From assembly GCF_003018255.1 (NCBI RefSeq), contig NZ_CP027440.1: DNA of 64,000 nt. The stretch is one strand, 5' to 3'. Both the position numbers and the translations under genes were made by a program. The first letter of the stretch is position 1, and each line of letters starts with the position of its first letter. The notes beneath the pieces are model-generated. The model saw nothing but the letters and a program-made list of their open reading frames with translations. It was not told the origin of the DNA and did no database searches. Of the stretch, positions 54,573 to 60,316 are shown piece after piece. This DNA comes from Escherichia coli (GTDB taxonomy: Bacteria; Pseudomonadota; Gammaproteobacteria; Enterobacterales; Enterobacteriaceae).

Positions 54573-55357
<785 letters not shown>

Positions 55358-55384
55358 AAATATATCCTTCGGCTTTGCGTGGAT

Positions 55385-55425
55385 GATAATTATACAGTAC
55401 ATGTAACGCTAATGTCATTACAGCA
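55385..55425 (-). promoter_or_regulatory. Putative promoter/operator of the toxin-antitoxin operon
   Basis: Minus strand: ATGACA - 18 nt - TATAAT, with palindromes TAATGACATTA (over the -35) and TACATGTA (in the spacer). Confidence 0.4.
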
Positions 55426-55490: not shown

Positions 55491-58400
55491 TTACTCAACA
55501 GGTTGCGGACGCGCAGGAGCGGCAGAGGCATGATGCGTTGCCGTATGACCACCTGCGGCACCTTTGCCTTCGAAGGCAAAAGTAGGGCGCTGCCAGTCAC
55601 TGTGACGCGGTGCCTCCGGAACATATTCCGGTGCCGGAGCGCGCGTCATTGGCGCGGTAGCGTGGTTATGCTCAACGGTGATCTCTGGTTCAACCGCGGC
55701 TACCGTTTCAACTTCTGCTGCGACTTCAGCGACGACTGGCGCGGCAGGTTGAGCAACAACTTCAGGTTCAGCAACCACAACCTCAGCAGTTTCGGCAACT
55801 TCTTCAATATCAGCCGTCTCTTCCTGCGGTTCAACCACCGGTTCTGCGTGTTCTGCAACTTCCTGGGCTACGGCAACATCAGACTCGGTAATCACCTGCG
55901 GCTGTTCAGTTACCGCGGCGGCAATTACTTCAGGATGCGTCGTTTCAGCCACTTCCGGTTGCGGTTCGGCAACCTGAACGGGGGCTTCTACAACTTCAGC
56001 CACTTCTTCAACAACTGGCGCGCTAACAACCGGTTCGACAGCGGCGGCGACAGGGACCTCAGTCACCATCGGCTGCACTTGTACTTCTTCCTGTTCGCGC
56101 TGCTCTTCGACCTGTACATCTTGCGGACGTACAATTGGATAGCGGATCCAGACTTTGCCAGAGGCCAGTTCCGGAGACGCGCACGCTACGGTCAACGGCA
56201 TTGGCGATTGGGTTGGATAACGCTCGTCACGATAGCGACGACGACGCTGACCACTCACGCGCAGGTGACGAGGCGAGCGGCGAGAACGACGCGGCATGCC
56301 ACCGTTGTCACGGTTATCAGCATTGTTCTCTTCTTGCTGTTCTGGTGCAGTTTGCGCTACGACTGGCAGCGGGACTTTCACCAGTTCTGTGCGTGGAGCT
56401 GGTGCTTCCTGAACAATTGGTTCGGCAGCGACAGTTTCTTCAACCACCGGTGCGACTACCGCTTCTTCGGCTACGCTTTGCTCGTAACGCACTTTCTGAT
56501 TGAGCTGACGCTGTTTACGACGCGGCTGAACCGGACGTACACGTTCTTCCTGTTCGGTTTCCTGAACAGATTGCTCTTCAACATTCAGCGCCTTCGCTTC
56601 TTGTTGCGCCTGACGTTTATCATCGTTACGGCGGCGGCTACGTTCACGACGCGGCGCTTGCTGCTCGTCGGTGGTACGTGCTTTTTCCGTTACCTCAGCC
56701 TGCTGACGGCTCTCACGCGTCTCGGCAGTCTGCTGCTGTGCCTGGCGACGATTACGACGGTTTTCTTCGCGATTATCGCTGCCTTCAGTACGTTCACTAC
56801 GGGTGTCGCGGCGCTCATTACGGTCACGGCGGTTGTTCTGACGAGGCTTGCGACGATCCTGTTGACGTTCCGGTTTCGCTTCTGCTTTCGGTGCTGGTTG
56901 CTCGGCCGGTTTGGTTTCTTCACCACCGCTGAACAGCGCTTTCAGTGCGCCGAAGAAGCGGCTCAACAACCCTGGTTGTGCAGGAGATGCTGGTGTTGCC
57001 GTTGCAGCTTTAGGTGCTGGGGCTACAACAGGCGCGGCAGGTTCAGCTGGGGTTGGAGCTGGCGGCACATCCGGCATGGCAAAGGTTGCCAGCGCAGGTT
57101 GTTCAGGACGCTTACGTTCAGCGAACTCTTCTTCAGACGGCAGCGCCATCGCTTCTTCATGCAGCTTCGGCAGCATGTAGCTTAAGGTTGGAGTTTCTTC
57201 CCCTTTACGCACGCGCAGCACATGGTAGTGCGGGGTTTCCATCTGATCGTTTGGCACAATCACACAGCGCACGCCGTCCTGACGAGTTTCAATCGCATTC
57301 ACTGCAGAACGTTTTTCATTCAGCAGGTAAGACGCGATTGGCACAGGAACAATGGCGTGAACTTCCTGAGTGTTCTCTTTCAGCGCTTCTTCTTCGATCA
57401 GACGCAGAATAGAGAGCGACAACGATTCGTTGTCACGCACGGTACCGGTACCGGAGCAGCGCGGGCAGACGTGATGGCTGGATTCACCCAATGATGGGCT
57501 CAGACGCTGACGGGACATTTCCAGCAGGCCAAAGCGAGAAATATGGCTGATTTGAATACGCGCCCGGTCCTGACGCACCGCTTCACGCAGACGGTTTTCT
57601 ACCGCACGCTGGTGGCGTACTGGCGTCATGTCGATGAAGTCGATAACAATCAGGCCGCCGAGGTCACGCAGGCGCAGCTGACGAGCAATCTCATCGGCAG
57701 CTTCGAGGTTGGTGTTAAACGCGGTTTCTTCGATATCGCCGCCGCGGGTCGCGCGTGCGGAGTTGATGTCGATGGCGGTTAACGCTTCGGTGCTGTCGAT
57801 AACAATGGAACCACCAGATGGCAGACGAACTTCACGCTGGAAGGCGGACTCAATCTGTGACTCAATCTGGTAGTGGCTGAACAGCGGGATCTCGCCGGTG
57901 TACAGTTTGATTTTGCTGCTGAAATCCGGGCGACCTAATGCAGCGATATGCTGGCGTGCCAGTTCGAGCACTTTCGGGTTATCGATAAGGATTTCGCCGA
58001 TATCCTGACGTAAGTAATCGCGGAATGCGCGAACGATGACGTTGCTCTCCTGATGAATCAGGAACGGAGCTGGGCGGCTTTCAGCGGCTTTTTTGATGGC
58101 TTCCCAGTGTTTCAGACGGAAGCTTAAATCCCATTGCAGCGCCTCAGCAGATTTGCCGACGCCAGCGGTGCGCACGATAAGCCCCATGCCTTCCGGCAGT
58201 TCAAGGCTTGCCAGTGCTTCTTTTAATTCGGTACGGTCGTCGCCTTCGATACGACGAGAAATGCCACCCGCGCGCGGGTTGTTCGGCATCAGAACCAGAT
58301 AGCTACCCGCCAGACTGATAAAGGTAGTTAATGCCGCGCCTTTGTTGCCGCGCTCTTCTTTATCGATCTGAACAATGACTTCCTGACCTTCACGCAACAC

Positions 58401-58676
58401 ATCTTTAATGTTGGGACGACCATGAGCACTGTAGTTAGCAGGGAAATATTCGCGGGCAATTTCTTTTAGTGGGAGGAAACCGTGACGTTCAGCGCCGTAA
58501 TCAACAAAAGCAGCTTCCAGACTCGGTTCAATGCGGGTGATTTTACCTTTGTAGATGTTTGCCTTTTTCTGCTCGTGCCCTGGACTTTCGATATCCAGGT
58601 CATACAGACGCTGCCCATCTACAAGGGCAACGCGCAACTCTTCCTGCTGAGTTGCGTTGATTAACATTCTTTTCAT
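55491..58676 (-). CDS. rne: Ribonuclease E
   Basis: 1061-aa ORF: N-terminal catalytic domain ([30 protein letters not shown]...) and Arg/Pro/Glu-rich low-complexity C-terminal scaffold. Confidence 0.97.
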
Positions 58677-59037
58677 CGTAACTTACTCATTATTCTTACA
58701 TTGACGACTAAGCTGCGGGCAAAGTAACGCCTTTCCGGGTGTGAACCGATGGCCTCGTGTCTAGTCGCGTCGCCAACCTCACGGTTATCGTCAGCTCAAA
58801 GAGGCGCAGAGTGTCGGTTGCCCGTTTTTCATGCGGAAAAACAGCGCAATTATCAAAGAAACAGACTGGGTATTACTCTCCAGAAATATTTCCATCTACC
58901 GGTAAGGACTGCAACCCGCAGCCCGCTAACTGCCTGAAAGATCAATACGTCTTACGCCATTGCTGCGTGGATGATCGGTCGGGCAAAATGGGTTATTCCG
59001 TAAAATTTCTTGTTTTAACAAGGATGGACACGGAAAC
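58677..59037 (-). promoter_or_regulatory. rne 5' untranslated leader (autoregulatory) and promoter-proximal region
   Basis: About 360 nt of non-coding sequence between the rne start and the divergent rluC region; extent taken from the known long rne leader. Confidence 0.55.
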
Positions 59038-59248
59038 GGCCTCATTATTCCACTGCAAGCCTTGTTATAGCAAGATGACTTTTACCATTTATCACCCGCT
59101 TACTCACAGTTTTTTCACTTCTTGCTGGTGATTGGTTTAATAACCATCAATAAAGTGATCACGTAGTGAAGTAATAAGGTGCAAAACTAAATATAAGCAT
59201 AGAAAAATGAGTGGCGCGAATCCTGTTGGCTAATTAGAATCGCCCACC

Positions 59249-60208
59249 ATGAAAACAGAGACTCCATCCGTAAAAATTGTTGCTATCAACGCTGACGAAG
59301 CGGGGCAACGTATCGATAACTTTTTGCGTACCCAATTGAAAGGCGTACCAAAAAGTATGATTTACCGTATTTTGCGTAAAGGCGAAGTGCGGGTGAACAA
59401 AAAACGTATTAAGCCTGAATATAAACTCGAAGCGGGTGATGAGGTGCGTATCCCACCGGTTCGCGTTGCTGAACGGGAAGAAGAGGCGGTTTCGCCACAT
59501 CTGCAAAAGGTGGCGGCGCTGGCGGACGTCATCTTATATGAAGATGACCATATCCTGGTGCTGAATAAACCTTCCGGTACGGCGGTACATGGCGGCAGTG
59601 GTTTAAGCTTCGGCGTTATCGAAGGTTTGCGGGCGTTGCGCCCGGAAGCGCGGTTCCTTGAACTGGTTCATCGTCTCGACCGGGACACTTCAGGTGTGTT
59701 GCTGGTAGCGAAAAAACGCTCGGCGTTGCGTTCTCTGCATGAGCAATTACGTGAAAAAGGGATGCAAAAAGATTACCTGGCGCTGGTGCGCGGTCAGTGG
59801 CAGTCGCATGTGAAGAGCGTTCAAGCGCCGTTGCTGAAAAATATTCTGCAAAGCGGCGAACGTATCGTGCGTGTGAGTCAGGAAGGCAAACCGTCGGAAA
59901 CACGCTTTAAAGTGGAAGAACGCTATGCTTTTGCCACCCTGGTGCGTTGTAGCCCGGTAACAGGGCGTACTCATCAGATCCGTGTGCATACACAGTATGC
60001 GGGTCATCCGATTGCCTTTGACGATCGCTACGGTGACCGTGAATTTGACAGACAGCTCACTGAAGCAGGCACAGGATTAAATCGTCTGTTCCTGCACGCC
60101 GCAGCGTTGAAGTTTACCCATCCGGGGACCGGTGAGGTGATGCGTATCGAAGCGCCGATGGATGAAGGTTTGAAGCGTTGTTTGCAAAAGCTGCGTAACG
60201 CGCGCTAA
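59249..60208 (+). CDS. rluC: 23S rRNA pseudouridine(955/2504/2580) synthase RluC
   Basis: 319-aa ORF with S4 domain and RluA-family catalytic motif (HRLDRDTSGVLLVAK). Confidence 0.93.
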   Translation: MKTETPSVKIVAINADEAGQRIDNFLRTQLKGVPKSMIYRILRKGEVRVNKKRIKPEYKLEAGDEVRIPPVRVAEREEEAVSPHLQKVAALADVILYEDDHILVLNKPSGTAVHGGSGLSFGVIEGLRALRPEARFLELVHRLDRDTSGVLLVAKKRSALRSLHEQLREKGMQKDYLALVRGQWQSHVKSVQAPLLKNILQSGERIVRVSQEGKPSETRFKVEERYAFATLVRCSPVTGRTHQIRVHTQYAGHPIAFDDRYGDREFDRQLTEAGTGLNRLFLHAAALKFTHPGTGEVMRIEAPMDEGLKRCLQKLRNAR

Positions 60209-60239: not shown

Positions 60240-60316
60240 GGCCTTGATAAGGCGTTTACGCCGCATCAGGCCGCCAGCACCGATTGCCGGATGCGACGTA
60301 ACCGCATCCGGCGCAG
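60240..60316. repeat. REP/BIME element pair
   Basis: GGCCTTGATAAGGCGTTTACGCCGCATCAGGCC and GCCGGATGCGACGTAACCGCATCCGGC between rluC and yceF. Confidence 0.65.

Follow-up and report, generated by a model that had tools for sequence, protein, structure and literature searches.

The 572-bp spacer between the divergent genes rne and rluC (58677..59248 of the window, i.e. of the 64,000-nt stretch of Escherichia coli DNA analysed here) raises the question of whether a long plus-strand open reading frame (ORF) that it contains is a gene, a sign of an antisense RNA or an accidental frame. On its left, rne (RNase E, 1061 aa; 55491..58676, minus strand) was assigned from the ORF list and from annotated E. 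coli RefSeq records of the same or nearly the same sequence, and on its right, rluC (23S rRNA pseudouridine synthase, 319 aa; 59249..60208, plus strand) was assigned from Pfam matches (PseudoU_synth_2 and S4) and RefSeq annotation. The measured length agrees with the ∼570 bp given in the original prediction, which had been made from the sequence alone, and the 124-aa plus-strand ORF described there is present at 58757..59131, with a GTG start. The prediction had also placed this ORF at the position of the doubtful K-12 gene yceQ. This was correct: yceQ (b1085, ‘DUF2655 domain-containing protein’, 106 aa) maps to 58811..59131 and shares the frame and the stop codon with the ORF. K-12 and the window differ at three positions of the spacer (59164, 59187 and 59245), none of which lies within the ORF. 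The region 58600-59330 was found at an identity of at least 95% in 5425 of the 5426 complete E. coli genomes and at 100% in one strain.

yceQ was once included in the Keio and PEC lists of essential genes. The literature (Price 2016, Goodall 2018, Rousset 2018) now agrees that no gene is present and that the ‘essentiality’ of yceQ stems from the promoter and leader of rne; both this status and the elements of the spacer are already known. Our analysis leads us to conclude that the yceQ frame is very probably an accidental plus-strand frame lying opposite the rne leader and promoters. With equally high confidence, which applies to this explanation as a whole, all conserved bases between rne and rluC would belong to known non-coding elements, nearly all of them on the minus strand, and the plus strand from 58677 to about 59210 would encode nothing functional.

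Both the codon-periodicity analysis and the conservation analysis of the ORF were negative for coding, which bears out the earlier view that it does not encode a protein. The period-3 signal-to-noise ratio was 1.08 for the ORF, compared with 4.74 for rluC and 5.39 for rne. When codon log-odds scores were trained on the 31 long ORFs of the window and compared with those of 93 real-gene windows, the ORF scored -0.17 bits/codon, inside the wrong-frame distribution, whereas the real genes had a minimum of 0.07 and a mean of 0.27. The GC content at the first codon position (GC1) was 0.40 in the ORF and 0.65–0.72 in real genes. As for its length, when the spacer was dinucleotide-shuffled 2000 times, an ORF of at least 124 codons appeared on either strand in 1.1% of the shuffles, and we estimate that a genome with hundreds of such spacers holds a few such frames by chance. 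The ORF had no match in the current Pfam-A and NCBIfam libraries even at E ≤ 1, and a sequence search of the PDB yielded no relative. The name DUF2655 persists in source annotations only. Among the RefSeq records listed, PGAP calls no gene between rne and rluC except for IS transposases in two strains.

We next consider the comparison among species, which was based on the rne-rluC spacers of 80 Enterobacteriaceae species (82 spacers were scored in the conservation scans). The spacer is 567–578 bp long in most of the species sampled. The frame is open in all five Escherichia sequences examined (the window, three further E. coli and one E. albertii) and in six other species, but it is broken in 71 of the 77 non-Escherichia species by stop codons, non-triplet indels or frameshifts, or large (∼125-nt) repeat insertions. 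With the nucleotide identity of about 85% that the RNA enforces, an open frame is expected to be inherited in some species. Across the species compared, the third codon position of the ORF does not stand out as variable: the variability at the first, second and third positions was 0.19, 0.12 and 0.17, compared with 0.025, 0.008 and 0.318 in rne and 0.068, 0.033 and 0.425 in rluC. Similarly, the median dN/dS of the ORF was 0.83 (interquartile range, 0.71–1.03), with values of about 0.85 against E. albertii and 0.78–1.08 in the species that keep the frame open, as compared with 0.003–0.05 in rne and rluC. The ‘synonymous’ sites of the ORF are far more conserved (pS, 0.10–0.19) than those of the flanking genes (0.37–0.72), indicating that selection acts on the nucleotides at all three codon positions. 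A search of 5.8 billion proteins with the ORF yielded only 32 clusters, all enterobacterial, of 68–156 aa and with ragged, unrelated ends. We considered whether these clusters represent a protein family and rejected this, because the part that they share is only the peptide opposite the invariant core of the RNA described below; antisense translation explains all of them.

On the minus strand, the spacer contains the 5′ untranslated region (UTR) of rne, a cis-acting autoregulation element that extends over 361 nt (58677..59037) when transcription starts at the promoter P1. RNase E senses the second hairpin of this leader (hp2) and accelerates the decay of its own mRNA, as has been shown for the identical K-12 sequence. 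The feedback through the rne 5′ UTR is reportedly the subject of work by Jain and Belasco in 1995, Diwa et al. in 2000 and Schuck et al. in 2009. The leader was identified by the Rfam family rne5 (RF00040), which matched 58701..59037 on the minus strand over its full length (model positions 1–333 of 333) with 260.1 bits, against a gathering threshold of 180, and E = 6.9e-82; the matched element lies just upstream of rne and on the same strand, the rne ATG being at 58676. This score upholds the original prediction, which assigned most of the spacer to the structured 5′ UTR of rne. The prediction had further placed the ORF entirely inside the leader. This is true of the longer transcript from the promoter P3, whose leader is the only one to cover the whole ORF, but not of the P1 leader, which overlaps 281 of its 375 nt; the last 94 nt of the ORF (59038..59131) lie over the P1 promoter, a further transcription start site (TSS) at 59071 and a pair of DnaA boxes.

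The structure of the leader is supported by covariation. The RNAalifold consensus obtained from 58 distinct leaders consists of 66 base pairs, 12 of which show compensatory double changes. In the alignment, 98.6% of the cells at these positions are paired, and the value falls to 27–42% when the partners are slid by 1–3 columns; none of 500 column shuffles matched the observed pairing values. A long-range helix of 11 bp (helix 5; 58710..58924 on the minus strand), in which 58914-58924 pair with 58710-58720 and 99.8% of the cells are paired, encloses the 3′ domain of the leader. The second stem-loop (58931..58985, minus strand; consensus helices 2–4, with five compensatory pairs) has the invariant core ACGCAGCAAUGGCGUAAGACGU, and no other block of the spacer is as conserved (identity, 0.95–0.97). 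From its position, we infer that this stem-loop corresponds to hp2, the sensor hairpin reported by Diwa et al. 2000. The opposite strand of this core encodes a 19-residue peptide, which is the ‘conserved’ part of YceQ. The leader also contains small minus-strand ORFs of 20–39 aa.

The pairing also tells which strand is under constraint. G.U pairs make up 8% of the paired cells of the leader, and three pairs of the long-range helix stay G.U in at least 80% of the sequences. Because conserved G.U pairs would become A.C mismatches in a plus-strand RNA, the constraint must act on the minus-strand transcript. Minimum-free-energy folding gave no information on strand or function: the leader had a z-score of -0.66, and its complement one of -1.91.

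In 21 of the 82 Enterobacteriaceae species, including those of Klebsiella, Raoultella, Kluyvera and Pseudocitrobacter, some Citrobacter, Pluralibacter and others, the rne leader contains an insertion of ∼90 to ∼260 nt, and most of these insertions are ∼120–128 nt long or about double that length. They share one site, an unpaired linker after the equivalent of 58895, and one locus (L007) has another insertion after the equivalent of 59004. The inserted element is a dispersed repeat, of which further copies are present in the same loci and which occurs at a median of five places in each E. coli genome. We take it to resemble the ERIC/IRU repeats, since the closest-matching insertions have 4–7 mismatches over 22 nt to the ERIC1R and ERIC2 primer sequences. 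In Yersinia, RNase E has been reported to target ERIC copies that are transcribed, so the ERIC-like insertions in the leader might alter autoregulation in the species that carry them.

The promoter scan located the rne promoter P1 at 59044..59073 on the minus strand, with a -35 hexamer TTGCTA (59073..59068), an 18-nt spacer that includes a TG and a -10 hexamer AATAAT (59049..59044), and its TSS at 59037. Both hexamers are invariant in all 82 spacers. Published TSS tables list minus-strand rne starts at 59026 and at 59037, the latter of which gives the 361-nt UTR in the supplement of Kim et al. 2012. The same supplement has a further rne TSS at 59071 (395-nt UTR; 12 reads), which possibly corresponds to the promoter P2. 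The promoter P3 (59190..59217, minus strand) has a -10 hexamer TATATT (59195..59190), a -35 hexamer GCGCCA (59217..59212) and a TSS at about 59186, which yields a leader of about 510 nt. This assignment follows Mendoza-Vargas 2009, the supplement of which reports a TSS at -510, 4 nt from the known rnep3, with the -10 sequence CTTATATT. The P3 promoter-like site is kept in 69 of the 82 spacers. P1 and P3 on the minus strand and the rluC promoter on the plus strand are the only conserved promoter-like sites in the 82 spacers.

A double DnaA box, TTATCACCC-gc-TTACTCACA (59089..59108, plus strand), was found in the window upstream of P1; it is known from a DnaA ChIP-seq peak labelled ‘(yceQ) rne’ (PMC11317965). 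The double box overlaps the zone upstream of the TSS at 59071 and abuts the -35 hexamer of P1. The block that holds the boxes (59087-59108) shows an identity of 0.88 across the 82 spacers, and this conservation in Enterobacteriaceae suggests, at the level of sequence, that the reported DnaA binding is functional. Another conserved segment, 59196..59217 (CATAGAAAAATGAGTGGCGC), is located between the back-to-back P3 and rluC promoters; its conservation is 0.93–1.00 in 82 species, and that of the neighbouring 59117-59189 is just 0.52. Since the segment is conserved beyond the need of the promoter hexamers, it may contain a regulator site. Two E. coli strains contain insertion sequences in the spacer: strain H8 has an IS1 at 59190-59198, in the -10 hexamer of P3, with a 9-bp duplication, and strain O121 201805972 has an ISEc11 at 59112-59114, upstream of the DnaA boxes and P1. 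P1 and the leader are intact in both, and P3 is therefore dispensable in these strains.

The plus strand carries the rluC promoter (59211..59249), which has a -10 hexamer TAGAAT at 59235..59240 and is kept in 80 of the 82 spacers at this -10 site. Its TSS is at 59249, the A of the rluC ATG; Kim et al. 2012 give a UTR length of 0 with 58 reads, and rluC is cited as a known leaderless gene (PMC8794815, PMC8921622). Consistent with this, the window sequence has no Shine-Dalgarno or AGGAG-like motif before the rluC ATG. The rluC and P3 promoters are arranged back to back, with their starts about 63 bp apart. Because rluC is leaderless and starts at its own ATG, this divergent promoter zone is compact: the rluC transcript overlaps neither the P1 leader nor the leader that starts at 59071, and of the P3 transcript, just the initial ∼60 nt lie under the rluC promoter region.

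Three observations on the surroundings of this spacer were also made. The low-complexity C-terminal half of rne has a 560-codon open frame on its antisense strand (55503..57185, plus strand), which is a further long non-genic frame of the yceQ kind. A two-gene module (54573..55402, minus strand), which encodes a GNAT acetyltransferase (169 aa) and a TacA/DUF1778-like antitoxin (112 aa), separates flgL from the 3′ end of rne; at this site, K-12 has flgO alone, and the GNAT plus TacA/DUF1778-like arrangement was found in 684 of the 5426 complete E. coli genomes. Finally, the gap between rluC and yceF contains a REP-like palindrome (60240..60313), which matched the Rfam family naRNA4 on both strands with 46–47 bits, below the gathering threshold of 59.5.

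The published genetic data can be read against this map. Transposon insertions in yceQ were recovered only when an outward promoter of the transposon can drive rne (Price 2016, Goodall 2018), and the toxicity of dCas9 at yceQ was confined to the rne-blocking orientation (Rousset 2018). Taken together, the published CRISPRi and transposon data show that, of the two strands, growth depends on transcription of the minus (rne) strand alone. Price et al. (10.1101/038851) found no ribosome-profiling reads on yceQ in any of three conditions and report that some E. coli strains carry a disrupted frame. Thus none of the three findings that the original prediction had named as refuting it (strong three-base periodicity, conservation as a protein and ribosome footprints) has appeared. 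In genome-synthesis experiments, three serine codons of yceQ refuse synonymous replacement. We placed these codons by eye, by matching the spacing of the TCG and TCA codons of the yceQ frame to the published positions, and mapped them to 58814-16, 58829-31 and 58853-55, where the first interval is 15 nt as against the published 14. In this placement, the conserved leader helices include the first codon completely and two of the three bases of the second.

Two other readings of the locus have to be weighed against an accidental frame. The original prediction held that anything functional here is more likely an antisense RNA than a protein, and such a cis-antisense RNA, a plus-strand transcript running across the rne leader, would modulate rne through duplex formation and RNase III cleavage or through transcriptional interference. 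We consider this very unlikely. Pervasive antisense transcription is common in E. coli, and the plus-strand RNA folds stably (the z-score of -1.91 mentioned above), but conserved G.U pairs of the leader fit the minus strand only. The plus strand of the leader does contain one weak promoter-like site (-35 TTTTCA at 58826 and -10 AATTAT at 58848; 8 of 12 matches). However, this site did not reach the 15 hits in the 82 spacers from which the conservation scan reported a position, the rluC promoter is the only conserved site on that strand, and the TSS table of Kim et al. contains no plus-strand start between rne and rluC. The rluC mRNA, which starts at its ATG, contributes no overlap either. ExcludonFinder places rne-yceQ among 16 divergent overlaps of E. 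coli, seen in at least 50% of 58 transcriptomes; we did not accept this listing as evidence for an antisense RNA, because its boundaries are set relative to annotated CDSs and it thus presupposes yceQ. Furthermore, blocking plus-strand transcription with dCas9 had no fitness effect, plus-strand interruptions by transposons are tolerated, and the ∼125-nt repeat insertions at one site of the leader in 21 of the 82 species would disrupt a conserved antisense RNA. The preference for an antisense RNA is accordingly not sustained.

Even less probable, in our judgement, is that yceQ is a real, Escherichia-restricted small protein of 106–124 aa with eight cysteines, i.e. a young de novo gene expressed only in conditions that have yet to be tested. 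The frame is open in all five Escherichia sequences, its length is in the 1.1% tail of the shuffles, and the K-12 annotation still reads ‘DUF2655 domain-containing protein’. An SD-like AGAGG is also present 6 nt upstream of the GTG at 58811, but it is a weak point in favour of a gene, since it is the complement of an invariant leader helix. Against these points stand the lack of periodicity (1.08) and the non-coding codon usage, a dN/dS of about 0.85 against E. albertii and about 1 against the frame-keeping species, the lack of ribosome-profiling reads and the frame disruptions reported by Price et al., and the O121 isolate, in which the ISEc11 at 59112-59114 replaces the last codons of the ORF. 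A young gene would also have to be reconciled with the lack of a PGAP call among the RefSeq records listed, of a Pfam or NCBIfam family, of a PDB relative and of a plus-strand promoter for its mRNA. There is, in addition, a slight chance, about as small as that of the antisense RNA, that a scarce plus-strand transcript, or a YceQ micro-product specific to Escherichia, arises inside the rne leader region and tunes RNase E synthesis in conditions that have not been profiled. If so, for example by an RNase III-sensitive pairing with the hp2/hp3 region, it would add a second layer of autoregulation.

We therefore prefer the reading of yceQ as an accidental frame, and the locus would then work as follows. 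Transcription of rne would start mainly at P1 (59037), with additional starts at 59071 and, from P3, at about 59186; a pair of DnaA boxes lies just upstream of P1. The resulting leader, 361 to roughly 510 nt long, would fold into the conserved multi-hairpin structure, and RNase E would recognize it via hp2, leading to faster decay of its own mRNA, a step taken from the literature. The sole functional element of the plus strand would be the short rluC promoter, which fires at the rluC ATG and produces a leaderless mRNA. The complement of the conserved RNA happens, on this account, to be free of stop codons in Escherichia, which would leave a frame of 124 codons. Both the apparent homologues of yceQ and its apparent essentiality are attributable to the rne leader and promoter beneath it.

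On these results, yceQ should be regarded neither as a gene nor as an essential protein, a conclusion on which independent comparative tests agree. Annotation pipelines, essential-gene lists and recoding designs that use the yceQ CDS are in reality touching the leader or promoter of rne. The map of the divergent rne/rluC control region in this strain may also be useful for engineering RNase E expression.

Finally, the locus can be compared with known systems. Relative to yceQ of K-12, the DNA is identical, and the ORF of the window gains 18 codons from the upstream GTG. Like the excludon and cis-antisense systems, the window has divergent genes and a long 5′ UTR, but it differs from them in that it has no documented overlapping plus-strand transcript; the mutual overlap is missing, as rluC is leaderless. 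In this latter respect rluC belongs with rhlB, racR and dicA, which are among the few leaderless examples in E. coli: its TSS is likewise the A of the ATG, it has no Shine-Dalgarno sequence, and its -10 hexamer is 8 nt upstream, the one difference from K-12 being an SNP in the discriminator region (59245, C in the window and A in K-12). The rne leader shares its position, strand, covarying helices and 361-nt P1 transcript with the rne5 type element (RF00040), from which it shows no difference, the leader of the window being identical to that of K-12, the type example for E. coli.
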